Source: Eimeria praecox
Lineage: Eukaryota
DNA: 64,000 nt
Reading direction: 5' to 3'
Assembly (NCBI GenBank): GCA_963920595.1
Contig: OY986946.1
Span: 310,001 to 374,000, forward strand
Shown here: positions 5,995-48,516 of the stretch, piece after piece
Numbering within the stretch: position 1 is the stretch's first letter
Layout of the letters: each line of letters begins with the position of its first letter
Translations under genes and position numbers: made by a program
Notes under the pieces: generated by a model
What the model was told of the DNA's origin: nothing
Database searches by the model: none
Seen by the model: the letters and a program-made list of their open reading frames with translations, nothing else

Positions 5995-6034
<40 letters not shown>

Positions 6035-9602: not shown

Positions 9603-9610
9603 TGCATGCA
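9603..9610. promoter_or_regulatory. TGCATGCA palindromic octamer (example site)
   Basis: Also present near 2155, 2815, 13648, 42105 and 47941. This octamer is known to be over-represented in Eimeria and is an ApiAP2-type motif in apicomplexans. Function at these sites is not shown. Confidence 0.35.
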
Positions 9611-16199: not shown

Positions 16200-18690
16200 T
16201 GCTGGCCATCGCAAAGGTTTTGCCCACTGCTGAACTTGCCCGTCGGCGTTGGTATAGCCCACCACAACGCATTTATTCAGGTCGATTGCTCACTTGCTGA
16301 GCAAAGCAGCAAAAATATAACTCTGGCCGTTGTTGCGCTTTCAAATATGCACCATGCATACGCTTTCCGTATGTACCAAATGACGAGCATCCCAAGCACT
16401 ATGTTGGGCTTGAGCGCAGCTCCGGCTTAATTGTGTGCTGAACCTGCGAACAAGCGCTTGTAATTGGAGACACGAAACAAACACTACTTCGTTGGAGAGC
16501 CTACTACAGACCCGTAATATATAATCTATCAACGTTCGCCCATCGTTTCACGCACAGACTGATTTACGAAAGTGCATGAGGACAGTCAGTTTTTCTGTCT
16601 GCTCCATCTAGGGTGTGACTCAACATCCCCGTCTAAAAGTTGATGGATCAACCAAAATACGGTGTCGCATTCGTGAGTCATGCTGACTTGTGCCTGAACC
16701 AGTAATGTCGCATGTATTAGGCCTCGCTATCGCATAAAATGGAAGCCTGAAGCAGAGGCATGCGCAAGGTGCAGTCTGCAGCGTACCTTCCACCTACACG
16801 CAGTTCGCATCCACCGATCGCAGCAGAAAGCAGGCCGGATAATTTTGAAGTTTGATCGCGTGACTCGTGATTTGATGGCACAATTCATCCATGCACACAC
16901 AGACTTACTCTCTGTATACCACCGTCCGATTCCACACCTGAACAGCCTAATGCCCCCCATGCAAAGCATCTCTACCATTTAAATGGCCATTTTCATCTTA
17001 CGAGCAGCTCTGCAAGTACGTCCTTTGCTGCACACGCGGCTCACTTTCTGTGCCGTGATATGCAGGCACGAACGATCAAAAAACTTCACTGCAGCATTTG
17101 ACATGCCACTTTACGTTGTTTTGCTAAACCCTTGCCATGCAGCTACGCCACTCTCTGAATCAACCACTTGCGTATTGGCTGAGTAGAGCAATGAACTACT
17201 GCTGAAAAAGCACAGCGTGTGCGCCTTGCAGGCAGCCGAAGTAAGGGTGCTGCATCCACGTTTTGCAGGATGCTGCCCACAGTCAAGAATTGCCCTACAC
17301 ACTCCATAAGTTCTAAGCACTCAGCCGTAAGCTTTGACTGTTGATCGAAGTAAGCTGAATCTATAGTCACTTTGATCATTCGATGGGGAAGGAAACCCAT
17401 CATGCATGCGCATTGTAAGCGTATCCCTGCGCCAAAACGGCACTGGGCATTTAAAGGCAAAGGGCCAAGCTTGTTGCCGATGCATGCGGCCACTAAAACA
17501 GGTGCACTTCGGTTACGCAAGGAACCGCCTTGCACGCGATTTCTGTAGGCCGTGCTCGCATTTTATTGGGTCCGCAAAAGCACGCAACAAGACGCACACA
17601 TTACTTACGAAGGTCTGACTAGACTGCATTTGCGCCTAGGGGTATTTATCAAGGCTACGTGCAGCTAACGCATATTCTGCACGCTCCATGCACTTCCTCC
17701 AAGAAGTGCGTTAGGGTACAGCGTTCACGCAACCGTGCCTCTGACCACTACCTGCACCTCAACCATCGCTTCGGCGGCAGACACGCCATAACCGCCCCAC
17801 CAGCAAGCATGCGCCCTTCACGTTTTCAGCCAGGGTTGAGGCAATGGCACGAGGTATTGGACTCTATCACCACAGCCTGCTCAAGTTCCTTCCTCTATTT
17901 GGCCCTTTAGCTTCGCGCCGCCAATACTCGATACGCTGCACACCACCTAACGGTCACAATCGCTTGTTTACACCTCGTGATGCACGTACGAAGATAACTG
18001 TACAAGCATCTCGCCTTGGATGCAACCCCGCATAAAGCAGAAATTTCTGGGGTGGCTGCCGCAGCGCCAGTACCACTGATCCTTCAAAGCGGCTACTGCG
18101 CAACTCCGCAAGCCTCTGTCAAGGCGTTTTGCATACTGGCTGTACCCAGCAACAACTGCGCGAAGTGTCAACGAGCATTCACAAAACTGCAATTCTTTCA
18201 TAAACGCTCCGACGGGCATTGGCAAGAGTTTTTCACGGCCCAAACAGCACGGCTTCTCGCAGCTCCACACGTATATCTAAATAAGTGCAGCCAGAGCGTT
18301 GCATCCAATTTTCATAGTCCGCCAACGAACGTGCGGGCTTCCGTCCTCTCAGCCAAAAGTGCACACAACGGAGAACAGATGGAGAGAAGCTTGCTTCCAT
18401 CCATTACTGAAGCCAGGCGTATACTTCATACAGCTGGCAAACCTAGGCAGGCCCAACAGCGCTTCGGCTGAGGGCATCGGCCAAAAGGCGCACAGCGCTT
18501 GTCAGCGCCGCTCAAGCGCCAGGAAATGGCACCGCTATCGCTTTGGTCATATCGCTTTGGTCATATCGCCCGCAAAACAATGCATGCTCCCAATGTAACA
18601 TCAAGCCTTTTGCAGCCCCTGAGCCCGTCGCAGGCACCGCTGATAGATCGCCGCTCACTACAATAATCTGTGCAAAACTACTGTTATTTC
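16200..18690 (-). pseudogene. Three degenerate SAG-like domain units leading into the 971-bp array
   Basis: Motif at 16288 (GCTCACTTGCTG), 17170 (GCGTATTGGCTG) and 18131 (GCATACTGGCTG), spaced 882 and 961 bp. Peptides: CLGCSS..SYIFCCFAQQV; FLTVGS/AKRGCSTLTSAAC..AVVHCSTQPI..FDRSCLH; and CCWVQPV. Confidence 0.5.
18536..18569. repeat. 14-bp tandem duplication private to duplication copy 1
   Basis: TATCGCTTTGGTCA occurs twice; the copy-2 homolog (~47365) has one unit. Confidence 0.85.
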
Positions 18691-18700
18691 TCCCTCCCAG

Positions 18701-21700
18701 CTCAGCATCCCCCCCATATAGGCCCCAAATGGCTAGACAGCTGCTGTGCAGCCTACTCTGCATACCCCCGACTCACTCGCTGGATGCACCAATGCATAGT
18801 CACAACGAAGACGCGCCTACTGCGTGCATCCTTCCGTGACTGCGTAACAGTGATGCAACGCAGGGAACCTAGACATCATGCCATGCACGGCCCTGCCCCA
18901 CCCAAACTGCACACCTCTCCCACACCTCTCCACGCAACTTTGAATCCATGCTATAGCCACGCTCCCCAAAACATCGCACGCCCATTTCGGCACACGCTCG
19001 CATCCTACCTTGACCGCCGCCCATGGCCCAGAATCGGCAATAAAGCAACACGCAAACCTTACAGTCGACGCCGAAGACAAGGCTTTGTGTTTCAGAGCAA
19101 GGAAATGCCAACGCACGCAATGGTGTGTTCCCCTTCCTGATGCTAACGGGATGTAAAATCCCTACACCGGCTCACAGCGACCTTCCCGGCCAAACACCTA
19201 CGCAACGGTGCATACAAACGGCACGCCTCCAATAGCCATGAACACCAACACAAACGCCACCGATACAGCCCCGCCCTCATTACCCATATATGTACCTGCG
19301 CATTCCTAAACCTCCCCGCACACTCAACCCTGCCCCGCCACACACCCTATCACTCACTATAGCTGGCTTCCCCCTTGCAACCTAAACCCCCACACCGACA
19401 CTCAGAAAGCATGTGCCTCTTCACAAGTCAATGCAGTGCACCCTAACTCTTCAAAATGCCCCCAAGCAAAACACAAAACAGATTCTGTCAATCCGCGCCT
19501 CCGCATGTAGTAAATACGTCGGCCCCATGCATCCACGCTGGCACGCAACGCTGCAAACGGCTGCAGCTTCTAGTGCATGGTGCAAACACCCCAATTCCTA
19601 TGCTTCACGATTGTCTGCGGCTTCATGCCATGCGCTCTACACGTCGAACCATAGACGTACCTCTCATGCACTCAGCATCACTGCCAAAACAGGCCCCAAA
19701 TGGATAACCAGCTGCTGTACAGCCTACTCTCCACACCCGGAGCTCACTGGCTGGACGCACCCATGCATAGTCACAACGCAGACGCGCTTACTGCGTGCAT
19801 CCTTCAGTGACTGCATAACAGTGATGCAACGCAGGGAACCTAGACATCATGCCATGCACGGCCCTGCCCCACCCAAACTGCACACCTCTCCCACACCTCT
19901 CCACGCAACTTTGAATCCATGCTATAGCCACGCTCCCCAAAACATCGCACGCCCATTTCGGCACACGCTCGCATCCTACCCTGACCGCCGGCCATGCCCC
20001 AGAATCGGCAATAAAGCAACACGCAAACCTTACAGTCGACGCCGAAGACAAGGCTTTGTGTTTCAGAGCAAGGAAATGCCAACGCACGCAATGGTGTGTT
20101 CCCCTTCCTGATGCTAACGGGATGTAAAATCCCGACGCCGGCCCACAGCGACCTTCCCGACCAAACACCTACGCAACGGTGCATACAAACGGCACGCCTC
20201 CAATAGCCATGAACACCAACACAAACGCCACCGATACAGCCCCGCCCTCATTACCCATATATGCACCTGCGCATTCCTAAACCTCCGCGCACACTCAACC
20301 CTGCCCCGCCACACACCCTAGCATTCACTATAGCTGGCTTCCCCCTTGCAACCTAAACCCCCACACCGACACCCAGAAAGCATGTGCCTCTTCACAAGTC
20401 AATGCAGTGCACCCTAACTCTTCAAAATGCCCCCAAGCAAAACACAAAACAGATTCTGTCAATCCGCGTCTCCGCATGCAGTAAATACGTCGGCCCCATG
20501 CATTCACGCTGGCACGCAACGCTGCAAACGGCTGCAGCTTCTAGTGCATGATGCAAACACCCCAATTCCTATGCTTCACGATTGTCTGCGGCTTCATGCC
20601 ATGCGCTCTACACGTCGAACCATAGACGTACCTCTCATACACTCAGCATCGCTGCCGAAACAGGTCCCAAATGGATAACCAGCTGCTGCGCAGCCTGCTC
20701 TGCACACCCGGAGCTCACTGGCTGGGTACACCAATGCATAGTCACAACGAAGAAGCGCCTACTGCGTGCACCCTTCAGTGACTGCGTAACAGTGATGCGA
20801 CCCAGGGAACCTAGACATCATGCCATGCACGGCCCTGCCCCACCCAAACTGCACACCTCTCCCACACCTCTCCACGCAACTTTGAATCCATGCTATAGCC
20901 ACGCTCCCCAAAACATCGCACGCCCATTTCGGCACACGCTCGCATCCTGCCCTGACCGCCGCCCATGCCCCACAATTGGCAATAAAGCAACACGCAAACC
21001 TTACAGTCGACGCCGAAGACAAGGCTTTGTGTTTCAGAGCAAGGAAATGCCAATGCATGCAATGGTGTGTTCCCCTTCCTGATGCTAACAGGATGTAAAA
21101 TCCCTACATCGGCCCACAGCGACCTTCCCGAGCAAACACCCACGCAACCGTGCATACAAACGGCACGCTTGCAAAGGCCATGAACACCGACACAAACGCC
21201 ACCGATACAGCCCCGCCCTCATTACCCATATATGCACCTGCGCATTCCTAAACCTCCCCGCACACTCAACCCTGCAACCCCGCACACCCTATCATTCACT
21301 ATAGCTGGCTTCCCCCTTGCAACCTAAACCCCCACACCGACACCCAGAAAGCATGTGCCTCTTCACAAGTCAATGCAGTGCACCCTAACTCTTCAAAATG
21401 CCCCCAAGCAAAACACAAAACAGATTCTGTTAATCCGCGTCTCCGCATGCAGTAAATACGTCGGCCCCATGCATTCACGCTAGCACGCAACGCTGCAAAC
21501 GGCTGCAGCTTCTAGTGCATTATGCAAATACCCCAATTCCTATGCTTCACGATTGTCTGCGGCTTCATGCCATGCGCTCTACATGTCGAACCATAGACGT
21601 ACCTCTCATACACTCAGCATCGCTGCCGAAACAGGTCCCAAATGGATAGCCAGCTGCTGCGCAGCCTGCTCTGCACACCCGGAGCTCACTGGCTGGGTGC

Positions 21701-24700
21701 ACCCATGCATAGTCACAACGAAGAAGCGCCTACTGCGTGCACCCTTCAGTGACTGCGTAACAGTGATGCGACCCAGGGAACCTAGACATCATGCCATCCA
21801 CGGCCCTGCCCCACCCAAACTGCACACCTCTCCCACACCTCTCCACGCAACTTTGAATCCATGCTATAGCCACGCTCCCCAAAACATCGCACGCCCATTT
21901 CGGCACACGCTCGCATCCTACCCTGACCGCCGCCCATGGCCCAGAATTGGCAATAAAGCAACACGCAAACCTTACAGTCGACGCCGAAGACAAGGCTTTG
22001 TGTTTCAGAGCAAAGAAATGCCAACGCACGCAATGGTGTGTTCCCCTTCCTGATGCTAACGGGATGTAAAATCCTTACAGCGGCTCACAGCGACCTTCCC
22101 GGCCAAACACCCACGCAACCGTGCATAGAAACGGGACGCTTAAAAAGGCCATGAACACCGACACAAACGCCACCGATACAGCCCCGCCCTCATTACCCAT
22201 ATATGTGCCTGCGCATTCCTAAACCTCCCCGCACACTCAACCCTGCCCCGCCACACACCCTATCACTCACTATAGCTGGCTTCCCCCTTGCAACCTAAAC
22301 CCCCACACCGACACCCAGAAAGCATGTGCCTCTTCACAAGTCAATGCAGTGCACCCTAACTCTCCAAAATGCCCCCAAGCAAAACACAAAACAGATTCTG
22401 TCAATCCGCGTCTCCGCATGCAGTAAATACGTCGGCCCCATGCATTCACGCTGGCACGCAACGCTGCAAACGGCTGCAGCTTCTAGTGCATGATGCAAAC
22501 ACCCCAATTCCTATGCTTCACGATTGTCTGCGGCTTCATGCCATGCGCTCTACACGTCGAACCATAGACGTACCTCTCATACACTCAGCATCGCTGCCGA
22601 AACAGGTCCCAAATGGATAACCAGCTGCTGCGCAGCCTGCTCTGCACACCCGGAGCTCACTGGCTGGGTACACCAATGCATAGTCACAACGAAGAAGCGC
22701 CTACTGCGTGCACCCTTCAGTGACTGCGTAACAGTGATGCGACCCAGGGAACCTAGACATCATGCCATGCACGGCCCTGCCCCACCCAAACTGCACACCT
22801 CTCCCACACCTCTCCACGCAACTTTGAATCCATGCTATAGCCACGCTCCCCAAAACATCGCACGCCCATTTCGGCACACGCTCGCATCCTGCCCTGACCG
22901 CCGCCCATGCCCCACAATTGGCAATAAAGCAACACGCAAACCTTACAGTCGACGCCGAAGACAAGGCTTTGTGTTTCAGAGCAAGGAAATGCCAACGCAT
23001 GCAATTGTGTGTTCCCCTTCCTGATGCTAACAGGATGTAAAATCCCTACATCGGCCCACAGCGACCTTCCCGAGCAAACACCCACGCAACCGTGCATACA
23101 AACGGCACGCTTGCAAAGGCCATGAACACCGACACAAACGCCACCGATACAGCCCCGCCCTCATTACCCATATATGCACCTGCGCATTCCTAAACCTCCC
23201 CGCACACTCAACCCTGCAACCCCGCACACCCTATCATTCACTATAGCTGGCTTCCCCCTTGCAACCTAAACCCCCACACCGACACCCAGAAAGCATGTGC
23301 CTCTTCACAAGTCAATGCAGTGCACCCTAACTCTTCAAAATGCCCCCAAGCAAAACACAAAACAGATTCTGTCAATCCGCGTCTCCGCATGCAGTAAATA
23401 CGTCGGCCCCATGCATTCACGCTGGCACGCAACGCTGCAAACGGCTGCAGCTTCTAGTGCATGATGCAAACACCCCAATTCCTATGCTTCACGATTGTCT
23501 GCGGCTTCATGCCATGCGCTCTACACGTCGAACCATAGACGTACCTCTCATACACTCAGCATCGCTGCCGAAACAGGTCCCAAATGGATAACCAGCTGCT
23601 GCGCAGCCTGCTCTGCACACCCGGAGCTCACTGGCTGGGTACACCAATGCATAGTCACAACGAAGAAGCGCCTACTGCGTGCACCCTTCAGTGACTGCGT
23701 AACAGTGATGCGACCCAGGGAACCTAGACATCATGCCATGCACGGCCCTGCCCCACCCAAACTGCACACCTCTCCCACACCTCTCCACGCAACTTTGAAT
23801 CCATGCTATAGCCACGCTCCCCAAAACATCGCACGCCCATTTCGGCACACGCTCGCATCCTGCCCTGACCGCCGCCCATGCCCCACAATTGGCAATAAAG
23901 CAACACGCAAACCTTACAGTCGACGCCGAAGACAAGGCTTTGTGTTTCAGAGCAAGGAAATGCCAACGCATGCAATTGTGTGTTCCCCTTCCTGATGCTA
24001 ACAGGATGTAAAATCCCTACATCGGCCCACAGCGACCTTCCCGAGCAAACACCCACGCAACCGTGCATACAAACGGCACGCTTGCAAAGGCCATGAACAC
24101 CGACACAAACGCCACCGATACAGCCCCGCCCTCATTACCCATATATGCACCTGCGCATTCCTAAACCTCCCCGCACACTCAACCCTGCAACCCCGCACAC
24201 CCTATCATTCACTATAGCTGGCTTCCCCCTTGCAACCTAAACCCCCACACCGACACCCAGAAAGCATGTGCCTCTTCACAAGTCAATGCAGTGCACCCTA
24301 ACTCTTCAAAATGCCCCCAAGCAAAACACAAAACAGATTCTGTTAATCCGCGTCTCCGCATGCAGTAAATACGTCGGCCCCATGCATTCACGCTAGCACG
24401 CAACGCTGCAAACGGCTGCAGCTTCTAGTGCATTATGCAAATACCCCAATTCCTATGCTTCACGATTGTCTGCGGCTTCATGCCATGCGCTCTACATGTC
24501 GAACCATAGACGTACCTCTCATACACTCAGCATCGCTGCCGAAACAGGTCCCAAATGGATAGCCAGCTGCTGCGCAGCCTGCTCTGCACACCCGGAGCTC
24601 ACTGGCTGGGTGCACCAATGCATAGTCACAACGAAGAAGCGCCTACTGCGTGCACCCTTCAGTGACTGCGTAACAGTGATGCGACCCAGGGAACCTAGAC

Positions 24701-27700
24701 ATCATGCCATCCACGGCCCTGCCCCACCCAAACTGCACACCTCTCCCACACCTCTCCACGCAACTTTGAATCCATGCTATAGCCACGCTCCCCAAAACAT
24801 CGCACGCCCATTTCGGCACACGCTCGCATCCTACCCTGACCGCCGCCCATGGCCCAGAATCGGCAATAAAGCAACACGCAAACCTTACAGTCGACGCCGA
24901 AGACAAGGCTTTGTGTTTCAGAGCAAAGAAATGCCAACGCATGCAATGGTGTGTTCCCCTTCCTGATGCTAACGGGATGTAAAATCCTTACAGCGGCTCA
25001 CAGCGACCTTCCCGGCCAAACACCCACGCAACCGTGCATAGAAACGGGACGCTTAAAAAGGCCATGAACACCGACACAAACGCCACCGATACAGCCCCGC
25101 CCTCATTACCCATATATGTGCCTGCGCATTCCTAAACCTCCCCGCACACTCAACCCTGCCCCGCCACACACCCTATCACTCACTATAGCTGGCTTCCCCC
25201 TTGCAATCTAAACCCCCACACCGACACTCAGAAAGCATGTGCCTCTTCACAAGTCAATGCAGTGCACCCTAACTCTTCAAAATGCCCCCAAGCAAAACAC
25301 AAAACAGATTCTGTTAATCCGCGCCTCCGCATGCAGTAAATATGTCGGCCCCATGCATCCACGCTGGCACGCAACGCTGCAAACGGCTGCAGCTTCTAGT
25401 GCATGATGCAAACACCCCAATTCCTATGCTTCACGATTGTCGGCGGCTTCATGCCATGCGCTCTACACGTCGAACCATAGACGTACCTCTCATACACTCA
25501 GCATCGCTGCCGAAACAGGTCCCAAATGGATAACCAGCTGCTGCGCAGCCTGCTCTGCACACCCGGAGCTCACTGGCTGGGTGCACCAATGCATAGTCAC
25601 AACGAAGACGCGCCTACTGCGTGCATCCTTCAGTGACTGCGTAACAGTGATGCGACCCAGGGAACCTAGACATCATGCCATGCACGGCCCTGCCCCACCC
25701 AAACTGCACACCTCTCCCACACCTCTCCACGCAACTTTGAATCCATGCTACAGCCACGCTCCCCAAAACATCGCACGCCCATTTCGGCACACGCTCGCAT
25801 CCTACCCTGACCGCCGCCCATGGCCTAGTATCGGCAATAAAGCAACACGCAAACCTTACAGTCGACGCCGAAGACAAGGCTTTGTGTTTCAGAGCAAAGA
25901 AATGCCAACGCACGCAATGGTGTGTTCCCCTTCCTGATGCTAACGGGATGTAAAACCCTCACAGCGGCCCACAGCGACCTTCCCGACCAAGCACCTACGC
26001 AACCGTGCATACAAACGGCACGCCTCCAATAGCCATGAACGCCGACACAAACGCCACCGATACAGCCCCGCCCTCATTACCCATATATGCACCTGCGCAT
26101 TCCTAAACCTCCCCGCACACTCAACCCTGCCCCGCCACACACCCTAGCATTCACTATAGCTGGCTTCCCCCTTGCAACCTAAACCCCCACACCGACACCC
26201 AGAAAGCATGTGCCTCTTCACAAGTCAATGCAGTGCACCCTAACTCTTCAAAATGCCCCCATGCAAAACACAAAACAGATTCTGTCAATCCGCGTCTCCG
26301 CATGAAGTAAATACGTCGGCCCCATGCATTCACGCTAGCACGCAACGCTGCAAACGGCTGCAGCTTCTAGTGCATGATGCAAACACCCCAATTCCTATGC
26401 TTCACGATTGTCTGCGGCTTCATGCCCTGCGCTCTACACGTCGAACCATAGACGTACCTCTCATGCACTCAGCATCACTGCCGAAACAGGCCCCAAATGG
26501 ATAACCAGCTGCGGTACAGCCTCCTCTGCACCCCCAAGCCTTACTGGCTGGACGCACCAATGCATAGTCACAACGAAGACGCGCCTACTGCGTGCATCCT
26601 TCAGTGACTGCGTAACAGTGATGCAACGCAGGGAACCTAGACATCATGCCATCCACGGCCCTGCCCCACCCAAACTGCACACCTCTCCCACACCTCTCCA
26701 CGCAACTTTGAATCCATGCTATACCCACGCTCCCCAAAACATCGCACGCCCATTTCGGCACACGCTCGCATCCTACCCTGACCGCCGCCCATGCCCCAGA
26801 ATCGGCAATAAAGCAACACGCAAACCTTACAGTCGACGCCGAAGACAAGGCTTTGTGTTTCAGAGCAAAGAAATGCCAACGCACGCAATGGTGTGTTCCC
26901 CTTCCTGATGCTAACGGGATGTAAAATCCTTACAGCGGCCCACATCGACCTTCCCGACCAAACACCTACCTAACCGTGCATACAAACGGCACGCCTGCAA
27001 TAGCCATGAACACCGACACAAACGCCACCGATACAGCCCCGCCCTCATTACCCATATATGCACCTGCGCATTCCTAAACCTCTCCGCACACTCAACCCTG
27101 CCCCCCCACACACCCTAGCATTCACTATAGCTGGCTTCCCCCTTGCAACCTAAACCCCCACACCGACACCCAGAAAGCATGTGCCTCTTCACAAGTCAAT
27201 GCAGTGCACCCTAACTCTTTAAAATGCCCCCAAACAGAGCGCAAAACAGATTCTGTCAATCCGCGTCTCCGCATGCAGTAAATATGTCGCCCCCATGCAT
27301 CCACGCTGGCACGCAACGCTGCAAACGGCTGCAGCTTCTAGTGCATGATGCAAACACCCCAATCCCTATGCTTCACGATTGTCTGCGGCTTCATGCCCTG
27401 CGCTCTGCACGTCGAACCATAGACGTACCTCTCATGCACTCAGCATCACTGCCGAAACAGGCCCCAAATGGATAACCAGCTGCGGTACAGCCTCCTCTGC
27501 ACCCCCAAGCCTCACTGGCTGGACGCACCAATGCATAGTCACAACGAAGACGCGCCTACAGCGTGCATCCTTCAGTGACTGCATAACAGTGATGCGACCC
27601 AGGGAACCTAGACATCATGCCATGCGCGGCCCTGCCCCACCCAAACTGCACACCTCTCCCACACCTCTCCACGCAACTTTGAATCCATGCTATAGCCACG

Positions 27701-30700
27701 CTCCCCAAAACATCGCACGCCCATTTCGGCACACGCTCGCATCCTGCCCTGACCGCCGCCCATGCCCCACAATTGGCAATAAAGCAACACGCAAACCTTA
27801 CAGTCGACGCCGAAGACAAGGCTTTGTGTTTCAGAGCAAGGAAATGCCAACGCATGCAATTGTGTGTTCCCCTTCCTGATCCTAGCAGGATGTAAAATCC
27901 CTACATCGGCCCACAGCGACCTTCCCGAGCAAACACCCACGCAACCGTGCATACAAACGGCACGCTTGCAAAGGCCATGAACACCGACACAAACGCCACC
28001 GATACAGCCCCGCCCTCATTACCCATATATGCACCTGCGCATTCCTAAACCTCCCCGCACACTCAACCCTGCCCCGCCACACACCCTAGCATTCACTATA
28101 GCTGGCTTCCCCCTTGCAACCTAAACCCCCACACCGACACCCAGAAAGCATGTGCCTCTTCACAAGTCAATGCAGTGCACCCTAACTCTTCAAAATGTCC
28201 CCAAGCAAAACACAAAACAGATTCTGTCAATCCGCGTCTCCACATGCAGTAAATGCGTCGGCCCCATGCATTCACGCTGGCACGCAACGCTGCAAACGGC
28301 TGCAGCTTCTAGTGCATGATGCAAGCACCCCAATTCCTATGCTTCACGATTGTCTGCGGCTTCATGCCCTGCACTCTACACGTCGAATTCTTGACGTACC
28401 TCTCACACACTCAGCATCACTGCCGAAACAGGCCCCAAATGGCTGACCAGCTGCGGTGCAGCCTACTCTGCATACGCGCGACTCACTCTCTGGATGCACC
28501 AATGCATAGTCACAACGAAGACGCGCCTACTGCGTGCACCCTCCAGTGACTGCATAACAGTGATGCAACGCAGGGAACCTAGACATCATGCCATGCACGG
28601 CCCTGCCCCACCCAAACTGCACACCTCTCCCACACCTCTCCACGCAACTTTGAATCCATGCTATAGCCACGCTCCCCAAAACATCGCACGCCCATTTCGG
28701 CACACGCTCGCATCCTACCCTGACCGCCGCCCATGCCCCAGAATTGGCAATAAGGCAACACGCAAACCTTACAGTCGACGCCGAAGACAAGGCTTTGTGT
28801 TTCAGAGCAAGGAAATGCCAACGCACGCAATGGTGTGTTCCCCTTCCTGATGCTAACAGGATGTAAAATCCTTACAGCGGCCCACAGCGACCTTCCCGGC
28901 CAAACACCTACGCAACCGTGCATACAAACGGCACGCCTGCAATAGCCATGAACACCGACACAAACGCCACCGATACAGCCCCGCCCTCATTACCCATATA
29001 TGCACCTGCGCATTCCTAAACCTCCCCGCACACTCAACCCTGCCCCGCCACACACCCTATCATTCACTATAGCTGGCTTCCCCCTTGCAACCTAGACCCC
29101 CACACCGACACCCAGAAAGCATGTGCCTCTTCACAAGTCAATGCAGTGCACCCTAACTCTTCAAAATGCCCCCAAGCAAAACACAAAACAGATTCTGTTA
29201 ATCCGCGTCTCCGCATGCAGTAAATACGTCGGCTACATGCATTCACGCTGGCACGCAACGCTGCAAACGGCTGCAGCTTCTAGTGCATGATGCAAACACC
29301 CCAATTCCTATGCTTCACGATTGTCTGCGGTTTCATGCCCTGCGCTCTACACGTCGAACCATAGACGTACCTCTCATACACTCAGCATCACTGCCGAAAC
29401 AGGCCCCAAATGGATAACCAGCTGCTGTACAGCCTACTCTGCACACCCGGAGCTCACTGTCTGGGTGCACCAATGCATAGTCACAACGAAGACGCGCCTA
29501 CTGCGTGCATCCTTCAGTGACTGCGTAACAGTGATGCGACCCAGGGAACCTAGACATCATGCCATGCACGGCCCTGCCCCACCCAAACTGCACACCTCTC
29601 CCACACCTCTCCACGCAACTTTGAATCCATGCTATAGCCACGCTCCCCAAAACATCGCACGCCCATTTCGGCACACGCTCGCATCCTACCCTGACCGCCG
29701 CCCATGCCCCAGAATTGGCAATAAGGCAACACGCAAACCTTACAGTCGACGCCGAAGACAAGGCTTTGTGTTTCAGAGCAAGGAAATGCCAACGCACGCA
29801 ATGGTGTGTTCCCCTTCCTGATGCTAACAGGATGTAAAATCCTTACAGCGGCCCACAGCGACCTTCCCGGCCAAACACCTACGCAACCGTGCATACAAAC
29901 GGCACGCCTGCAATAGCCATGAACACCGACACAAACGCCACCGATACAGCCCCGCCCTCATTACCCATATATGTGCCTGCGCATTCCTAAACCTCCCCGC
30001 ACACTCAACCCTGCCCCGCCACACACCCTAACATTCACTTGTGCCTCTTCACAAGTCAATGCAGTGCACCCTAACTCTTCAAAATGCCCCCAAGCAAAAC
30101 ACAAAACAGATTCTGTCAATCCGCGTCTCCGCATGCAGTAAATACGTCGGCTCCATGCATTCACGCTGGCACGCAACGCTGCAAACGGCTGCAGCTTCTA
30201 GTGCATGATGCAAACACCCCAATTCCTATGCTTCACGATTGTCTGCGGTTTCATGCCCTGCGCTCTACACGTCGAACCATAGACGTACCTCTCATACACT
30301 CAGCATCGCTGCCGAAACAGGCCCCAAATGGATAACCAGCTGCTGTACAGCCTCCTCTGCACCCCCAACCCTCACTGGCTGGACGCACCAATGCATAGTC
30401 ACAACGAAGACGCGCCTACAGCGTGCATCCTTCAGTGACTGCGTAACAGTGATGCAACGCAGGGAACCTAGGCATCATGCCATGCACGGCCCTGCCCCAC
30501 CCAAACTGCACACCTCTCCCACACCTCTCCACGCAACTTTGAATCCATGCTATAGCCACGCTCCCCAAAACATCGCACGCCCATTTCGGCACACGCTCGC
30601 ATCCTACCCTGACCGCCGCCCATGCCCCAGAATCGGCAATAAAGCAACACGCAAACCTTACAGTCGACGCCGAAGACAAGGCTTTGTGTTTCAGAGCAAG

Positions 30701-33700
30701 GAAATGCCAACGCACGCAATGGTGTGTTCCCCTTCCTGATGCTAACAGGATGTAAAATCCTTACAGCGGCCCACAGCGGCCTTCCCGACCAAACACCTAC
30801 GCAACCGCGCATACAAACGGCACTCTTAAAAAGGCATGAACACCGACACAAACGCCACCGATACAGCCCCGCCCTCATTACCCATATATGCACCTGCGCA
30901 TTCCTAAACCTCCCCGCACACTCAACCCTGCCCCGCCACACACCCTAGCATTCACTATAGCTGGCTTCCCCCTTGCAACCTAAACCCCCACACCGACACC
31001 CAGAAAGCATGTGCCTCTTCACAAGTCAATGCAGTGCACCCTAACTCTTCAAAATGCCCCCAAGCAAAACACAAAACAGATTCTGTCAATCCGCGTCTCC
31101 GCATGCAGTAAATACGTCGGCCCCATGCATTCACGCTGGCACGCAACGCTGCAAACGGCTGCAGCTTCTAGTGCATGATGCAAACACCCCAATTCCTATG
31201 CTTCACGATTGTCTGCGGCTTCATGCCCTGCGCTCTACACGTCGAACCATAGACGTACCTCTCATACACTCAGCATCACTGCCGAAACAGGCCCCAAATG
31301 GATAACCAGCTGCTGTACAGCCTACTCTGCACACCCGGAGCTCACTGTCTGGGTGCACCAATGCATAGTCACAACGAAGACGCGCCTACTGCGTGCACCC
31401 TTCAGTGACTGCGTAACAGTGATGCGACCCAGGGAACCTAGACATCATGCCATGCACGGCCCTGCCCCACCCAAACTGCACACCTCTCCCACACCTCTCC
31501 ACGCAACTTTGAATCCATGCTATACCCACGCTCCCCAAAACATCGCACGCCCATTTCGGCACACGCTCGCATCCTACCCTGACCGCCGCCCATGCCCCAG
31601 AATTGGCAATAAAGCAACACGCAAACCTTACAGTCGACGCCGAAGACAAGGCTTTGTGTTTCAGAGCAAGGAAATGCCAACGCATGCAATGGTGTGTTCC
31701 CCTTCGTGATGCTAGCGGGATGTAAAATCCTTACAGCGGCCTACAGCGACCTTCCCGACCAAACACCCACGCAACCGTGCATACAAACGGCACGCCTGCA
31801 ATAGCCATGAACACCGACACAAACGCCACCGATACAGCCCCGCCCTCATTACCCATATATGTGCCTGCGCATTCCTAAACCTCCCCGCACACTCAACCCT
31901 GCCCCGCCACACACCCTAACATTCACTATAGCTGGCTTCCCCCTTGCAACCTAAACCCCCACACCGACACCCAGAAAGCATGTGCCTCTTCACAAGTCAA
32001 TGCAGTGCACCCTAACTCTTCAAAATGCCCCCAAGCAAAACACAAAACAGATTCTGTTAATCCGCGTCTCCGCATGCAGTAAATACGTCGGCTACATGCA
32101 TTCACGCTGGCACGCAACGCTGCAAACGGCTGCAGCTTCTAGTGCATGATGCAAACACCCCAATTCCTATGATTCACGATTGTCTGCGGTTTCATGCCCT
32201 GCGCTCTACACGTCGAACCATAGACGTACCTCTCATACACTCAGCATCACTGCCGAAACAGGCCCCAAATGGATAACCAGCTGCTGTACAGCCTACTCTG
32301 CACACCCGGAGCTCACTGTCTGGGTGCACCAATGCATAGTCACAACGAAGACGCGCCTACTGCGTGCACCCTTCAGTGACTGCGTAACAGTGATGCGACC
32401 CAGGGAACCTAGACATCATGCCATGCACGGCCCTGCCCCACCCAAACTGCACACCTCTCCCACACCTCTCCACGCAACTTTGAATCCATGCTATAGCCAC
32501 GCTCCCCAAAACATCGCACGCCCATTTCGGCACACGCTCGCATCCTACCCTGACCGCCGCCCATGCCCCAGAATTGGCAATAAGGCAACACGCAAACCTT
32601 ACAGTCGACGCCGAAGACAAGGCTTTGTGTTTCAGAGCAAGGAAATGCCAACGCACGCAATGGTGTGTTCCCCTTCCTGATGCTAACAGGATGTAAAATC
32701 CTTACAGCGGCCCACAGCGACCTTCCCGAGCAAACACCCACGCAACCGTGCATACAAACGGCACGCTTGCAAAGGCCATGAACACCGACACAAACGCCAC
32801 CGATACAGCCCCGCCCTCATTACCCATATATGCACCTGCGCATTCCTAAACCTCCCCGCACACTCAACCCTGCAACCCCGCACACCCTATCATTCACTAT
32901 AGCTGGCTTCCCCCTTGCAACCTAAACCCCCACACCGACACCCAGAAAGCATGTGCCTCTTCACAAGTCAATGCAGTGCACCCTAACTCTTCAAAATGCC
33001 CCCAAGCAAAACACAAAACAGATTCTGTTAATCCGCGTCTCCGCATGCAGTAAATACGTCGGCCCCATGCATTCACGCTAGCACGCAACGCTGCAAACGG
33101 CTGCAGCTTCTAGTGCATTATGCAAATACCCCAATTCCTATGCTTCACGATTGTCTGCGGCTTCATGCCATGCGCTCTACATGTCGAACCATAGACGTAC
33201 CTCTCATACACTCAGCATCGCTGCCGAAACAGGTCCCAAATGGATAGCCAGCTGCTGCGCAGCCTGCTCTGCACACCCGGAGCTCACTGGCTGGGTGCAC
33301 CAATGCATAGTCACAACGAAGAAGCGCCTACTGCGTGCACCCTTCAGTGACTGCGTAACAGTGATGCGACCCAGGGAACCTAGACATCATGCCATCCACG
33401 GCCCTGCCCCACCCAAACTGCACACCTCTCCCACACCTCTCCACGCAACTTTGAATCCATGCTATACCCACGCTCCCCAAAACATCGCACGCCCATTTCG
33501 GCACACGCTCGCATCCTACCCTGACCGCCGCCCATGGCCCAGAATCGGCAATAAAGCAACACGCAAACCTTACAGTCGACGCCGAAGACAAGGCTTTGTG
33601 TTTCAGAGCAAAGAAATGCCAACGCATGCAATGGTGTGTTCCCCTTCCTGATGCTAACGGGATGTAAAATCCTTACAGCGGCTCACAGCGACCTTCCCGG

Positions 33701-36700
33701 CCAAACACCCACGCAACCGTGCATACAAACGGGACGCTTAAAAAGGCCATGAACACCGACACAAACGCCACCGATACAGCCCCGCCCTCATTACCCATAT
33801 ATGTGCCTGCGCATTCCTAAACCTCCCCGCACACTCAACCCTGCCCCGCCACACACCCTATCACTCACTATAGCTGGCTTCCCCCTTGCAATCTAAACCC
33901 CCACACCGACACTCAGAAAGCATGTGCCTCTTCACAAGTCAATGCAGTGCACCCTAACTCTTCAAAATGCCCCCAAGCAAAACACAAAACAGATTCTGTT
34001 AATCCGCGCCTCCGCATGCAGTAAATATGTCGGCCCCATGCATCCACGCTGGCACGCAACGCTGCAAACGGCTGCAGCTTCTAGTGCATGATGCAAACAC
34101 CCCAATTCCTATGCTTCACGATTGTCGGCGGCTTCATGCCATGCGCTCTACACGTCGAACCATAGACGTACCTCTCATACACTCAGCATCGCTGCCGAAA
34201 CAGGTCCCAAATGGATAACCAGCTGCTGCGCAGCCTGCTCTGCACACCCGGAGCTCACTGGCTGGGTGCACCAATGCATAGTCACAACGAAGACGCGCCT
34301 ACTGCGTGCATCCTTCAGTGACTGCGTAACAGTGATGCGACCCAGGGAACCTAGACATCATGCCATGCACGGCCCTGCCCCACCCAAACTGCACACCTCT
34401 CCCACACCTCTCCACGCAACTTTGAATCCATGCTACAGCCACGCTCCCCAAAACATCGCACGCCCATTTCGGCACACGCTCGCATCCTACCCTGACCGCC
34501 GCCCATGGCCTAGTATCGGCAATAAAGCAACACGCAAACCTTACAGTCGACGCCGAAGACAAGGCTTTGTGTTTCAGAGCAAAGAAATGCCAACGCACGC
34601 AATGGTGTGTTCCCCTTCCTGATGCTAACGGGATGTAAAACCCTCACAGCGGCCCACAGCGACCTTCCCGACCAAGCACCTACGCAACCGTGCATACAAA
34701 CGGCACGCCTCCAATAGCCATGAACGCCGACACAAACGCCACCGATACAGCCCCGCCCTCATTACCCATATATGCAGCTGCGCATTCCTAAACCTCCCCG
34801 CACACTCAACCCTGCCCCGCCACACACCCTAGCATTCACTATAGCTGGCTTCCCCCTTGCAACCTAAACCCCCACACCGACACCCAGAAAGCATGTGCCT
34901 CTTCACAAGTCAATGCAGTGCACCCTAACTCTTCAAAATGCCCCCAAGCAAAACACAAAACAGATTCTGTCAATCCGCGTCTCCGCATGCAGTAAATACG
35001 TCGGCCCCATGCATTCACGCTGGCACGCAACGCTGCAAACGGCTGCAGCTTCTAGTGCATGATGCAAACACCCCAATTCCTATGCTTCACGATTGTCTGC
35101 GGCTTCATGCCCTGCGCTCTACACGTCGAACCATAGACGTACCTCTCATGCACTCAGCATCACTGCCGAAACAGGCCCCAAATGGATAACCAGCTGCGGT
35201 ACAGCCTCCTCTGCACCCCCCAGCCTTACTGGCTGGACGCACCAATGCATAGTCACAACGAAGACGCGCCTACTGCGTGCATCCTTCAGTGACTGCGTAA
35301 CAGTGATGCAACGCAGGGAACCTAGACATCATGCCATCCACGGCCCTGCCCCACCCAAACTGCACACCTCTCCCACACCTCTCCACGCAACTTTGAATCC
35401 ATGCTATAGCCACGCTCCCCAAAACATCGCACGCCCATTTCGGCACACGCTCGCATCCTACCCTGACCGCCGCCCATGCCCCAGAATCGGCAATAAAGCA
35501 ACACGCAAACCTTACAGTCGACGCCGAAGACAAGGCTTTGTGTTTCAGAGCAAAGAAATGCCAACGCACGCAATGGTGTGTTCCCCTTCCTGATGCTAAC
35601 GGGATGTAAAATCCTTACAGCGGCCCACATCGACCTTCCCGACCAAACACCTACCTAACCGTGCATACAAACGGCACGCCTGCAATAGCCATGAACACCG
35701 ACACAAACGCCACCGATACAGCCCCGCCCTCATTACCCATATATGCACCTGCGCATTCCTAAACCTCCCCGCACACTCAACCCTGCCCCCCCACACACCC
35801 TAGCATTCACTATAGCTGGCTTCCCCCTTGCAACCTAAACCCCCACACCGACACCCAGAAAGCATGTGCCTCTTCACAAGTCAATGCAGTGCACCCTAAC
35901 TCTTTAAAATGCCCCCAAACAGAGCGCAAAACAGATTCTGTCAATCCGCGTCTCCGCATGCAGTAAATATGTCGCCCCCATGCATTCACGCTGGCACGCA
36001 ACGCTGCAAACGGCTGCAGCTTCTAGTGCATGATGCAAACACCCCAATCCCTATGCTTCACGATTGTCTGCGGCTTCATGCCCTGCGCTCTACACGTCGA
36101 ACCATAGACGTACCTCTCATGCACTCAGCATCACTGCCGAAACAGGCCCCAAATGGATAACCAGCTGCTGTACAGCCTACTCTGCACACCCGGAGCTCAC
36201 TGTCTGGGTGCACCAATGCATAGTCACAACGAAGACGCGCCTACTGCGTGCACCCTTCAGTGACTGCGTAACAGTGATGCGACCCAGGGAACCTAGACAT
36301 CATGCCATGCGCGGCCCTGCCCCACCCAAACTGCACACCTCTCCCACACCTCTCCACGCAACTTTGAATCCATGCTATACCCACGCTCCCCAAAACATCG
36401 CACGCCCATTTCGGCACACGCTCGCATCCTACCCTGACCGCCGCCCATGCCCCAGAATTGGCAATAAAGCAACACGCAAACCTTACAGTCGACGCCGAAG
36501 ACAAGGCTTTGTGTTTCAGAGCAAGGAAATGCCAACGCATGCAATGGTGTGTTCCCCTTCGTGATGCTAGCGGGATGTAAAATCCTTACAGCGGCCCACA
36601 GCGACCTTCCCAACCAAACACCTACGCAACCGTGCATACAAACGGCACGCCTGCAATAGCCATGAACACCGACACAAACGCCACCGATACAGCCCCGCCC

Positions 36701-39700
36701 TCATTACCCATATATGTGCCTGCGCATTCCTAAACCTCCCCGCACACTCAACCCTGCCCCGCCACACACCCTAACATTCACTTGTGCCTCTTCACAAGTC
36801 AATGCAGTGCACCCTAACTCTTCAAAATGCCCCCAAGCAAAACACAAAACAGATTCTGTCAATCCGCGTCTCCGCATGCAGTAAATACGTCGGCTCCATG
36901 CATTCACGCTGGCACGCAACGCTGCAAACGGCTGCAGCTTCTAGTGCATGATCCAAACACCCCAATTCCTATGCTTCACGATTGTCTGCGGTTTCATGCC
37001 CTGCGCTCTACACGTCGAACCATAGACGTACCTCTCATACACTCAGCATCACTGCCGAAACAGGCCCCAAATGGATAACCAGCTGCTGTACAGCCTACTC
37101 TGCACACCCGCGCCTCACTAGCTGGATGCACCAATGCATAGTCACAACGAAGAAGCGCCTACTGCGTGCACCCTTCAGTGACTGCGTAACAGTGATGCGA
37201 CCCAGGGAACCTAGACATCATGCCATGCGCGGCCCTGCCCCACCCAAACTGCACACCTCTCCCACACCTCTCCACGCAACTTTGAATCCATGCTATAGCC
37301 ACGCTCCCCAAAACATCGCACGCCCATTTCGGCACACGCTCGCATCCTACCCTGACCGCCGCCCATGCCCCAGAATTGGCAATAAAGCAACACGCAAACC
37401 TTACAGTCGACGCCGAAGACAAGGCTTTGTGTTTCAGAGCAAGGAAATGCCAACGCATGCAATGGTGTGTTCCCCTTCCTGATCCTAGCAGGATGTAAAA
37501 TCCCTACATCGGCCCCCAGCGACCTTCCCGACCAAACACCCACGCAACCGTGCATACAAACGGCACGCTTGCAATAGCCATGAACACCGACACAAACGCC
37601 ACCGATACAGCCCCGCCCTCATTACCCATATATGCACCTGCGCATTCCTAAACCTCCCCGCACACTCAACCCTGCAACCCCGCACACCCTATCATTCACT
37701 ATAGCTGGCTTCCCCCTTGCAACCTAAACCCCCACACCGACACCCAGAAAGCATGTGCCTCTTCACAAGTCAATGCAGTGCACCCTAACTCTTCAAAATG
37801 CCCCCAAGCAAAACACAAAACAGATTCTGTCAATCCGCGTCTCCACATGCAGTAAATACGTCGGCCCCATGCATTCACGCTGGCACGCAACGCTGCAAAC
37901 GGCTGCAGCTTCTAGTGCATGATGCAAACACCCCAATTCCTATGCTTCACGATTGTCTGCGGTTTCATGCCCTGCGCTCTACACGTCGAGCCATAGACGT
38001 ACCTCTCATACACTCAGCATCACTGCCGAAACAGGCCCCAAATGGATAACCAGCTGCTGTACAGCCTACTCTGCACACCCGGAGCTCACTGTCTGGGTGC
38101 ACCAATGCATAGTCACAACGAAGACGCGCCTACTGCGTGCACCCTTCAGTGACTGCGTAACAGTGATGCGACCCAGGGAACCTAGACATCATGCCATGCG
38201 CGGCCCTGCCCCACCCAAACTGCACACCTCCCCCACACCTCTCCACGCAACTTTGAATCCGTGCTATAGCCACGCTCCCCAAAACATCGCACGCCCATTT
38301 CGGCACACGCTCGCATCCTACCCTGACCGCCGCCCATGCCCTAGTATCGGCAATAAAGCAACACGCAAACCTTACAGTCGACGCCGAAGACAAGGCTTTG
38401 TGTTTCAGAGCAAAGAAATGCCAACGCACGCAATGGTGTGTTCCGCTTCCTGATGCTAACGGGATGTAAAATCCTTACAGCGGCTCACAGCGACCTTCCC
38501 GACCAAACACCCACGCAACCGTGCATACAAACGGCACGCTTGCAATAGCCATGAACACCGACACAAACGCCACCGATACAGCCCCGCCCTCATTACCCAT
38601 ATATGCAGCTGCGCATTCCTAAACCTCCCCGCACACTCAACCCTGCCCCGCCACACACCCTAGCATTCACTATAGCTGGCTTCCCCCTTGCAACCTAAAC
38701 CCCCACACCGACACCCAGAAAGCATGTGCCTCTTCACAAGTCAATGCAGTGCACCCTAACTCTTCAAAATGCCCCCAAGCAAAACACAAAACAGATTCTG
38801 TCAATCCGCGTCTCCGCATGAAGTAAATACGTCGGCCCCATGCATTCACGCTAGCACGCAACGCTGCAAACGGCTGCAGCTTCTAGTGCATGATGCAAAC
38901 ACCCCAATTCCTATGCTTCACGATTGTCTGCGGTTTCATGCCCTGCGCTCTACACGTCGAGCCATAGACGTACCTCCCATACACTCAGCATCACTGCCGA
39001 AACAGGCCCCAAATGGATAACCAGCTGCTGCGCAGCCTACTCTCCACACCCGGAGCTCACTGTCTGGGTGCACCAATGCATAGTCACAACGAATAAGCGC
39101 CTACTGCGTGCACCCTTCAGTGACTGCGTAACAGTGATGCGACCCAGGGAACCTAGACATCATGCCATGCGCGGCCCTGCCCCACCCAAACTGCACACCT
39201 CTCCCACACCTCTCCACGCAACTTTGAATCCATGCTATACCCACGCTCCCCAAAACATCGCACGCCCATTTCGGCACACGCTCGCATCCTACCCTGACCG
39301 CCGCCCATGCCCTAGTATCGGCAATAAAGCAACACGCAAACCTTACAGTCGACGCCGAAGACAAGGCTTTGTGTTTCAGAGCAAGGAAATGCCAACGCAC
39401 GCAATGGTGTGTTCCCCTTCCTGATGCTAACAGGATGTAAAATTCTCACATCGGCTCACAGCGACCTTCCCGGCCAAACACCCACGCAACCGTGCATACA
39501 AACGGCACGCCTGCAATAGCCATGAACACCGACACAAACGCCACCGATACAGCCCCGCCCTCATTACCCATATATGTGCCTGCGCATTCCTAAACCTCCC
39601 CGCACACTCAACCCTGCCCCGCCACACACCCTATCACTCACTATAGCTGGCTTCCCCCTTGCAACCTAAACCCCCACACCGACACCCAGAAAGCATGTGC

Positions 39701-41670
39701 CTCTTCACAAGTCAATGCAGTGCACCCTAACTCTTCAAAATGCCCCCAAGCAAAACACAAAACAGATTCTGTCAATCCGCGTCTCCACATGCAGTAAATA
39801 CGTCGGCCCCATGCATTCACGCTGGCACGCAACGCTGCAAACGGCTGCAGCTTCTAGTGCATGATGCAAACACCCCAATTCCTATGCTTCACGATTGTCT
39901 GCGGTTTCATGCCCTGCGCTCTACACGTCGAGCCATAGACGTACCTCCCATACACTCAGCATCACTGCCGAAACAGGCCCCAAATGGATAACCAGCTGCT
40001 GTACAGCCTACTCTGCACACCCGGAGCTCACTGTCTGGGTGCACCAATGCATAGTCACAACGAAGACGCGCCTACTGCGTGCACCCTTCAGTGACTGCGT
40101 AACAGTGATGCGACCCAGGGAACCTAGACATCATGCCATGCGCGGCCCTGCCCCACCCAAACTGCACACCTCCCCCACACCTCTCCACGCAACTTTGAAT
40201 CCGTGCTATAGCCACGCTCCCCAAAACATCGCACGCCCATTTCGGCACACGCTCGCATCCTACCCTGACCGCCGCCCATGCCCTAGTATCGGCAATAAAG
40301 CAACACGCAAACCTTACAGTCGACGCCGAAGACAAGGCTTTGTGTTTCAGAGCAAGGAAATGCCAACGCACGCAATGGTGTGTTCCCCTTCCTGATGCTA
40401 ACAGGATGTAAAATTCTCACATCGGCTCACAGCGACCTTCCCGACCAAACACCCACGCAACCGTGCATACAAACGGCACGCTTGCAATAGCCATGAACAC
40501 CGACACAAACGCCACCGATACAGCCCCGCCCTCATTACCCATATATGCAGCTGCGCATTCCTAAACCTCCCCGCACACTCAACCCTGCCCCGCCACACAC
40601 CCTAGCATTCACTATAGCTGGCTTCCCCCTTGCAACCTAAACCCCCACACCGACACCCAGAAAGCATGTGCCTCTTCACAAGTCAATGCAGTGCACCCTA
40701 ACTCTTCAAAATGCCCCCAAGCAAAACACAAAACAGATTCTGTCAATCCGCGTCTCCGCATGAAGTAAATACGTCGGCCCCATGCATTCACGCTAGCACG
40801 CAACGCTGCAAACGGCTGCAGCTTCTAGTGCATGATGCAAACACCCCAATTCCTATGCTTCACGATTGTCTGCGGTTTCATGCCCTGCGCTCTACACGTC
40901 GAGCCATAGACGTACCTCCCATACACTCAGCATCACTGCCGAAACAGGCCCCAAATGGATAACCAGCTGCTGCGCAGCCTACTCTCCACACCCGGAGCTC
41001 ACTGTCTGGGTGCACCAATGCATAGTCACAACGAATAAGCGCCTACTGCGTGCACCCTTCAGTGACTGCGTAACAGTGATGCGACCCAGGGAACCTAGAC
41101 ATCATGCCATGCGCGGCCCTGCCCCACCCAAACTGCACACCTCTCCCACACCTCTCCACGCAACTTTGAATCCATGCTATACCCACGCTCCCCAAAACAT
41201 CGCACGCCCATTTCGGCACACGCTCGCATCCTACCCTGACCACCGCCCATGCCCCAGAATCGGCAATAAAGCAGCACGCAAGCCTTACAGTCGACGCCGA
41301 AGACAAGGCTTTGTGTTTCAGAGCAAGGAAATGCCAACGCATGCAATGGTGTGTTCCCCTTCCTGATGCTAACGGGATGTACAATTCCTACATCGGCTCA
41401 CAGCGACCTTCCCGACCAAACACCCACGCAACCGTGCATACAAACGGCACGCTTGCAATAGCCATGAACACCGACACAAACGCCACCGATACAGCCCCGC
41501 CCTCATTACCCATATATGCACCTGCGCATTCCTAAACCTCCCCGCACACTCAACCCTGCACCCCCGCACACCCTATCATTCACTATAGCTGGCTTCCCCC
41601 TTGCAACCTAAACCCCCACACCGACACCCAGAAAGCATGTGCCTCTTCACAAGTCAATGCAGTGCACCCT
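18701..41670 (+). repeat. 971-bp macrosatellite, ~23.8 head-to-tail copies
   Basis: A landmark stop recurs at 19140, 20111, ... 41366 (24 times). Period is 971 except two 918-bp units (53-bp deletion at ~30040 and ~36783) and one 970-bp unit. Units differ by scattered SNPs. The + strand is strongly C/A-rich. Confidence 0.99.
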
Positions 41671-42300
41671 GAAGCTTGAGAATAATCCGGTGGTATCGAT
41701 GACATGCACTATGCTCCGTAAAAGCTAAGCAACCACCCCTGCAAGGAGCAAGCATGGGCGTCCTTGGCAAGTCAATACATTGCAGACTACATCTCGAGAA
41801 TGCCCCTAAGCAAGGCCCGTCATGGCAGACGCTGTCAGTCGGTGCCAGCAGATACAGTCCGTGTCTCTTCCAGTGGCCTTCAAGCTGGCCGTGAGCATTC
41901 GAAAGCCGCAGTGGGTAGTCTCTCACGCCAAAATGAAATGTAGGTGATGTAGGGCCGCCTGTAACTACACGCCCTCGTAGCCTCCGCATCACAGCCAAGA
42001 CGCCGTTAAAGGGTAATGAGCCGCTTTGCAAACGTGTGTCCAAACCAGCAACTCACTGGCTGGATGCAGGATTGCATAGTTGCAAAAGAGGCGTGGCCTC
42101 TGCTTGCATGCAAGATTGAGCAAGTACCACAGCTGCAGCAGTAGCCCTGCCGCCTGGCGTCGACCCAAGGCATTAGGCAGAATGTGCGCTGCTCCGTGGG
42201 CATTGGAAATATTTCTTAATCGCAAAAACAGTACAGCATTACGGAGGATCAGACGCAGCTTCGAAGGAGCTCAGCCAAAGGGTTGTATGCAATATGTGAA
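41671..42300 (+). repeat. Diverged single homolog of the satellite unit
   Basis: CAAGTCAATACATTGCA...AATGCCCCTAAGCAA (~41767-41813) and ACTCACTGGCTGGATGCA..TGCATAGT (42051) match the 971 unit. Minus strand reads ATMQSCIQPVS. Confidence 0.75.
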
Positions 42301-43196
42301 TATCAGAGCTACACGAGTTAACTTGTAAGTTTCCCCTCCTTAGAAAAAACGGGTACTCTGACTGCGAAGCACCAGGACACCCTTCGCATCACAGATATAG
42401 CGGAGTGCAAGCAAACTGCCTCGGCAACAGCGGTGTTCACTGCCATGGCAGCTGCATCGAGACGTTATTTAACCGATTCCTGGGGAAACACTGCCATTTG
42501 ATTTCTCTTTCGCTTCAGCAACAATATGACTACCAAATCCTGCTGATTCGCGAGCTAGGAGTCGTTGGCTCAACTGCATGCCACACAAGTCCCCGTTACG
42601 TATCTGTGCCAGCACCAAAAAGCTCCTGTTTGTATAGTAACGCTACACCGAAGCTATGCACGCGCCGATAGCTGGCCAACAAAGTGTTTGAAGGCAGGGA
42701 AGAAGCGAATAGCGCAGTCACACCGAAGTGAGAGTATACGGGGGTTAGACTGGAACTACACAAAATTGCTTGCTCTACCAGACAGGGCTTGTTTGCTGTG
42801 CATGCCCTATCATTACTTCTCAGCACTAAGGGCGTCCACAGCGTCCTGCTCTAACGCGCTGCCAACCGCTAAAATATGCATCCGTCTCTTAGCTTGGCGG
42901 TCCTCTGATAAGCATGCATGGCGTGTTTGATAAGCGCTGTGCCTACATGCATCACAGCTGTGTCTTGCCGTGTTTGGTAGACTTCAGCATTCCGGAAACG
43001 GTTGTAAAATCATTTTGAAGGGTTAGCGCACTTACAAAATATGCAACATTGATGTCGATATTCCCCCTGCGAGCTTTACATAAGACAATGTCCCATCACA
43101 CCAGAAAGGAACTACAATTCCCTGCTTAATTCACCATAGTTGCAAGTGCATGCCTATACTTGCTTGCAGGTCACCGCCATGGTTGCAAACGCATGT

Positions 43197-48440: not shown

Positions 48441-48516
48441 CACGCATCTTAGTCTCACACTTCCGCATACACCCTAAAGCGTCTTGCCACAGAGTGAATC
48501 TTGCGCTTCAGCACCC

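Follow-up and report, generated by a model that had tools for sequence, protein, structure and literature searches.

The array and its copies

The window analysed here is a 64,000-nucleotide stretch of the Eimeria praecox genome (contig OY986946.1, positions 310,001 to 374,000), and all coordinates below are those of the window. It holds array A, a tandem array of 971-bp units that lies on the minus strand at 18701-41683, surrounded by decayed relatives of the same unit. With one unit as the query, blastn recovers 23 full copies and one 758-bp partial copy, and Tandem Repeats Finder (TRF) places the array at 18720-41670 with a period of 971; both bear out the 23-kb array of 971-bp units described in an earlier, sequence-only reading of this DNA. 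At the left edge of array A, a 4.35-kb duplicated block joins the array at a mid-unit position, at the point where the other copy of the block continues into a decayed module, J; the right edge adjoins another decayed module, K.

Most full units are 971 bp long (19 copies); two are 970 bp and two, u12 and u19, are 918 bp and share a 53-bp deletion, an allele that thus recurs seven units apart. Any two copies differ by a mean of 38 bases (range 2-65), or ~4% divergence. The closest pairs are regularly spaced: u07/u16, u08/u17 and u09/u18, each nine units apart, differ by 2, 4 and 5 bases, and u03/u06, three units apart, by 2. In the four-gamete test, about one third of the site pairs (1869 of 5778) are incompatible, as in mosaic copies. 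Array A shows block duplications, with lags of three and nine units, and its units are mosaic. Like other macrosatellites, it is a single-locus, head-to-tail array of numerous kilobase-scale units, and the lag-3 and lag-9 blocks and the incompatible sites are signs of concerted evolution by recombination. Variable sites are spread unevenly along the unit: the least variable stretch of 150 bp contains 9 (p 0.008), and the most variable contains 44, a value seen in 0 of 2000 permutations; the contrast is between columns about 145-295 and about 913-92.

The copies evolve neutrally, with no protein-level constraint at present: the ratio of nonsynonymous to synonymous differences (N/S) among them is 0.93-1.23 across all six frames. 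Array A as a whole is likely neutral and devoid of function. A value near 1 fits the amplification of a unit that was already non-functional, in line with the proposal of the sequence-only reading that amplification followed inactivation. Many of the stops on which that proposal drew are indeed common to the copies (of 47 stop sites on the minus strand, 26 occur in every copy that includes the position), and a unit carries 35 minus-strand stops as compared to 45 ± 5 in base shuffles. Yet any homogeneous repeat would share its stops, which are thus uninformative about a gene origin.

The array could also be thought of as an expressed multicopy gene, for example one encoded by a 176-codon plus-strand frame that is free of stops in 21 of the 22 units examined. 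However, N/S is 0.97 within this frame, its first ATG lies near its middle, the strand is C/A-rich and has few stops, and Pfam has no match for the larger ORF in which it is embedded (19386-20108). An expressed gene is highly improbable.

The peptides quoted in the sequence-only reading can be found in the units, albeit to different extents. CLGSL[RG][CR]ITV[TM]QSLK[DG]AR is present in 22 of 24 units and HFEELGCTALTCEEA in 20 of 24, while FMAI[AG][GS]VPFVCTVA and FDV*SA[WG]HEAADNREA are limited to 13 and 11 of the 24, respectively. They do not share a single frame: CLGSL and FDV occur together, HFEELG in a second frame and FMA in a third, so that the four peptides span three frames. The two quoted AG contexts, GTGTGCAG and GCGCAG, are each found in 24 of 24 units.

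A family of related modules

Array A belongs to a family of at least 13 relatives, A included, each 0.7-1.1 kb long, all on the minus strand and distributed across 1.2-57 kb; at least 12 other modules in the window are thus homologous to the A unit. The sequence-only reading had omitted the extent of this family, about 56 kb, of which array A is described as the youngest layer only. The flanking decayed units that it did report are real and homologous to A: nhmmer with unit A detects J at 47381-48452 (E 9e-60) and K at 41713-42135 (E 3e-21). J is a single decayed full-length paralogue on the minus strand at 47381-48452, with a copy of the shared splice-like box described below at 47902, and is the module most similar to A (58% across the aligned length); K, likewise decayed and on the minus strand, spans 41690-42250 at the right edge of array A, with its box at 42062.

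A second array, B, lies at 48517-57044 (minus strand) and comprises 7.9 copies of a 1085-bp module paralogous to A; the match between units A and B has an E-value of 1e-14. The B copies are 99% identical (0-12 differences among the seven full copies, or ~1% divergence), and array B was amplified separately from A, likely more recently.

Profiles add the remaining modules. M, N and O are present in both copies of the 4.35-kb block, the first at 14344-18694 and the second at 43178-47509; the two are 97.4% identical, and the block has about twice the single-copy contig depth. In the second copy, the boxes of O, N and M lie at 45131, 46013 and 46974, giving spacings of 882 and 961, then 928 to J. 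The 97% identity of this direct duplication drops to 83% over the final 400 bases, and an older paralogy of about 67% goes on between 13.2-13.9 kb and 42.5-43.3 kb. Farther left in the window are the decayed modules Q1, Q2 and Q3 with a fragment at 9353-9517 (together 9353-11611, minus strand; boxes at 10001, 10683 and 11572) and P1, P3 and P2 (1198-3699, minus strand; boxes at 1717, 2806 and 3684). Two of these modules have the best-preserved frames in the family: Q3 (11114-11620, minus strand) has ~150 stop-free codons past the box and P1 (1370-1945, minus strand) ~114. Inside a run, adjacent modules are spaced by 0.7-1.1 kb.

A, J, B, K, M and N align with one another at 36-58% identity, the weakest pairs being individually non-significant (z of 1.0 or less in 3 of 15 pairs); the P and Q modules align at 40-51%. 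Leave-one-out profiles built without the box regain three of eight distant modules (P1, P2 and Q1; E 3e-6 to 2e-4). P3 was itself found by a box-free profile, with an E-value of 1.2e-9, and the reversed control gave no match.

Read support

This stretch is represented in three public runs (X1, X2 and X3) that belong to two studies, one of the runs possibly being the source of the window itself. The depth of a contig is not a copy number; for the 4.35-kb block and array B, the depth ratios are consistent with the assembly. Depths of single-copy contigs are 490-524 (X2) and 49-52 (X3); those of the block are 900-950 and 85-98, about twice as high, and a contig of array B reaches 4031 and 385. 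These ratios fit two copies of the block and about eight copies of B; for array A, whose contigs in X3 have depths of 596-743, they indicate many copies and give no count.

That array A is an artefact of assembly is hardly credible. Among the contigs listed none spans the array, and individual A contigs in X3 are only at 12-14 times the flank depth. Against this, the copies differ in a structured manner by 2-65 bases, the deletion that defines the 918-bp unit is seen as a joint in X1, and the depth of array A is raised in all three runs from both studies.

Around 47287-47420, the contigs of X1, X2 and X3 flank the stretch with sequence that is absent from the window; a close copy of this segment is likely to exist elsewhere in the genome.

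The shared splice-like box

The best-conserved feature common to the modules is a box of ~20 bp in which a pyrimidine-rich stretch leads into CAG, a single triplet and GTRNG. An example from an A unit lies at 20712-20736 on the minus strand; its triplet is variable, and it is acceptor-like and also donor-like. On the minus strand, 9 of 27 non-redundant CAGC[CA]A sites are followed by GTRNG, or 6 of 23 once the seeds are set aside; on the plus strand the figure is 1 of 35, and the background is 1.3%. The pyrimidine fraction just upstream is 0.69 vs. 0.49, and in 10 of 12 modules the nearest preceding AG lies at a distance of at least 15 bases, as compared to 37% of 309 background CAG sites. In P3, which was found without the box, the middle triplet differs, and the pyrimidine tract, the CAG and the V-C codons are retained. 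Among distant modules, the information content is 1.1-1.3 bits at most positions from 0 to +10 and about 0.3 elsewhere.

To judge from these sequence features, the box is likely a splice acceptor followed by an exon that would begin with x-V-C; a donor or a protein-binding box would also fit. A pure splice donor was considered as well and is weakened by the acceptor features upstream and by homology that extends downstream.

Origin of the array

The preferred reading, to which we assign a probability of about 60%, is that array A is a young neutral macrosatellite that arose by amplification of a single module, and that the old, decayed ~1-kb family to which this module belongs is what remains of a dead tandem gene cluster. 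The modules likely descend from exon-plus-intron pieces of that cluster, as the splice-like box suggests. Misaligned recombination inside the old tandem cluster would have duplicated single modules; unequal crossing-over and gene conversion would then have enlarged array A to about 24 copies and mixed them; and array B would have gone through the same process later. The gene-derived satellite of the sequence-only reading is partly supported, by the homologous modules, by the splice-like box and by the N/S values.

Several observations weigh against a gene cluster as the source, and a coding past of the modules is weakly supported at best. Anchored blocks give no significant codon-position signal between paralogues (permutation p 0.16-0.71), and only 17 of 136 alignment gaps between paralogues are multiples of three. 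An apparent codon bias (pooled p 0.037) was not reproduced in the anchored blocks. The box-free leave-one-out profiles are blank for five of the eight distant modules. Most distant modules were selected by the box, so that its conservation is overstated. A, J, B and K do not count as independent cases, and among the dinucleotides conserved in these four, AG and GT are not enriched. The uneven variation along the A unit (p 0.008) is compatible with constraint as well as with conversion tracts.

Nor did any database search return a protein relative. Pfam yields nothing relevant for 9 and 20 translated references, and among 75 stop-free open reading frames (ORFs), those of Q3 and P1 included, it yields five weak matches, all below the curated cut-off. 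Searches of the PDB with one frame and three profiles give zero matches at E 10, and word-seeded protein searches at E 10 nothing relevant. Three consecutive A units covering all three minus frames find no match at E 0.001 by hmmsearch among 1.84 billion representative proteins, and the P1 ORF none in the ESM Atlas. Protein searches have low power on frameshifted remnants. Rfam gives zero matches.

The modules may instead never have been coding and represent an old satellite library that carries a conserved protein-binding box, with A and B its young homogenised layers, possibly pericentromeric. This accords with the lack of a coding signal in codon positions, N/S and gaps, with the box as the sole strongly conserved part among distant modules, with the failure of the 75 ORFs to match Pfam above its cut-off and of any match in Rfam, and with the presence inside the cluster of a 5.1-kb AT-rich microsatellite (about 85% A+T). 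However, the box has the pyrimidine tract and the AG-free stretch of an acceptor, its middle triplet varies freely in P3, the estimate of its conservation is biased by the selection of sites, and a literature search found no paper on Eimeria centromeres. A never-coding library is rather unlikely.

A related proposal would make the whole region a layered satellite domain, built from the debris of a surface-antigen cluster, that marks a putative centromere or pericentromere. In it, old ~1-kb monomers with a conserved ~20-bp box surround two young homogenised arrays and a 5-kb AT-rich microsatellite. Layered alpha-satellite is organized in a comparable way: its old, divergent monomers enclose young homogeneous arrays, and it has higher-order blocks and a short conserved box, the CENP-B box. 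Unlike alpha-satellite, the monomers here are about 1 kb long, the arrays span only 8-23 kb, and the box resembles a splice site. The proposal is improbable.

A possible surface-antigen ancestry

A special case of the dead-cluster reading is that the modules are remnants of surface-antigen (SAG) genes of the TA4/CAP fold, with a period equal to one SAG domain or gene piece. SAG-A is the leading candidate for the parent family, unproven and held here as a tentative possibility. In 7 of 13 modules, the acceptor-like CAG is followed by codons for P/Q/D-V-C, and by eye this x-V-C resembles the x-V/L/I-C cysteine of the SAG-A alignment in supplement 4 of PMC7979774. Published sag genes are found in tandem clusters, and 357 sag pseudogenes are reported across seven species (PMC10301564).

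Motif chains were assembled from degenerate motifs of the same SAG-A alignment (NxxR, cysteines, YWK, SFVALYNP, PF; PMC7979774). A five-motif chain anchored on the box gives a Stouffer z of 2.3 over 13 modules, a value that 4 of 200 scrambled motif sets also attain, in a comparison run without a positive control; in an earlier run, with P3 anchored 2 bases off, 7 of 200 scrambled sets scored as high. The anchored signal is carried by P1 and K (z about 3), and unit A itself has a z of 0.6. An unanchored nine-motif chain is at chance in seven regions, with a minus-strand z of at most 1.7.

Unit A also contains a CAP-like patch, W-x6-G-C-x4-C, at 20394-20450 on the minus strand, which corresponds to HFEELGCTALTC of the sequence-only reading and is similar to strand C of CAP/SAG proteins. 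The pattern is a generic CAP one and post hoc, picked once the sequence had been seen; its score is the highest in about 25 kb of non-redundant sequence and is reached by 5 of 200 shuffles. The patch is non-significant in J, K, B, M and N. For the strand-C motifs of SAG-B/C and SAG-A, 16 and 22 of 200 shuffles, respectively, reach the score of unit A, and neither Pfam nor the PDB, which includes a solved SAG structure, has a relevant match, the latter at E 10.

A SAG origin is possible but not probable. The claim that the unit is an antigen domain is unproven: database searches are blank, the unanchored chain is at chance and the anchored one is marginal. The flanking units are homologous to A at the nucleotide level, while no protein-level match to SAGs was found. 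The gene structure is not a simple fit either. According to PMC4199364, a sag gene of Eimeria encodes one domain and is split into 4-5 exons, four in sagA and five in sagB/C, so the equation of one domain with one exon plus one intron does not follow readily.

The wider resemblance to sag clusters, judged from the available parts of PMC4199364, PMC4413850, PMC10301564 and PMC7979774, lies in tandem same-strand paralogues, DNA poor in CAG repeats and weak echoes of motifs. By contrast with those clusters as described there, no intact gene, NxxR motif or cysteine set is demonstrated in the modules.

Comparison with known arrays

The closest known systems are coccidian. In PMC8092015, Toxoplasma gondii B1 forms a tandem array of 9-19 copies, and the 529-bp repeat is present in 85-205 copies, a number that changes in progeny. 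Array A shares with these, as described there, a single-locus tandem organization with sub-kilobase to kilobase units; unlike them, it is still flanked by decayed paralogues, and two different modules have been amplified side by side.

A further comparison is with gene-bearing macrosatellites such as D4Z4, in which the DUX4 frame is kept intact. Like D4Z4, array A has a kilobase-scale, presumably gene-related unit in tens of head-to-tail copies; unlike D4Z4, all of its frames are neutral.

No description of kilobase-unit arrays of this kind in Eimeria was found in the literature, of which coverage is incomplete, and the available parts of PMC7564333, PMC10739835, PMC9141347, PMC12659853, PMC4287421 and PMC11912684 contain no matching array. 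The process behind array A is a known one, of which it adds a further case in an unusually complete context. The birth of a satellite can be viewed with its source in place: two modules of one dead cluster, at ~4% and ~1% divergence, sit beside a dozen unamplified relatives, a case suited to asking why certain modules expand. The 24-copy array A might serve as a sensitive target for polymerase chain reaction (PCR) or strain typing, a use already made of the Toxoplasma B1 and 529-bp repeats. Its significance is modest.

Composition and other features of the window

The AT-rich tract noted above is a (TA)n/(TAGA)n microsatellite at 3771-8879, 5.1 kb long, that begins about 90 bases from the P2 box. 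GC skew is strong in both arrays, about -0.35 in array A (18701-41683) and about -0.27 in array B (48517-57044). The minus strand of array A is G-rich and has one extended G-quadruplex-type match per unit, with none in array B; the G4Hunter maximum is 1.8 on the minus strand of unit A and 1.0 in unit B.

At the right end of the window, an ORF at 62415-62972 (minus strand) has an RRLAE motif and encodes a hydrophobic segment with C-V directly behind it. This ORF, at 62.4-62.9 kb, has no match in Pfam, among longer proteins or in the ESM Atlas; we take it to resemble an Eimeria-specific membrane-protein family. The GC content of the window is near 51%, TGCA occurs 357 times vs. 113 expected, and TGCATGCA 7 times vs. 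0.4 expected. Together with the RRLAE ORF, the GC content and these two excesses presumably point to Eimeria or a close coccidian.

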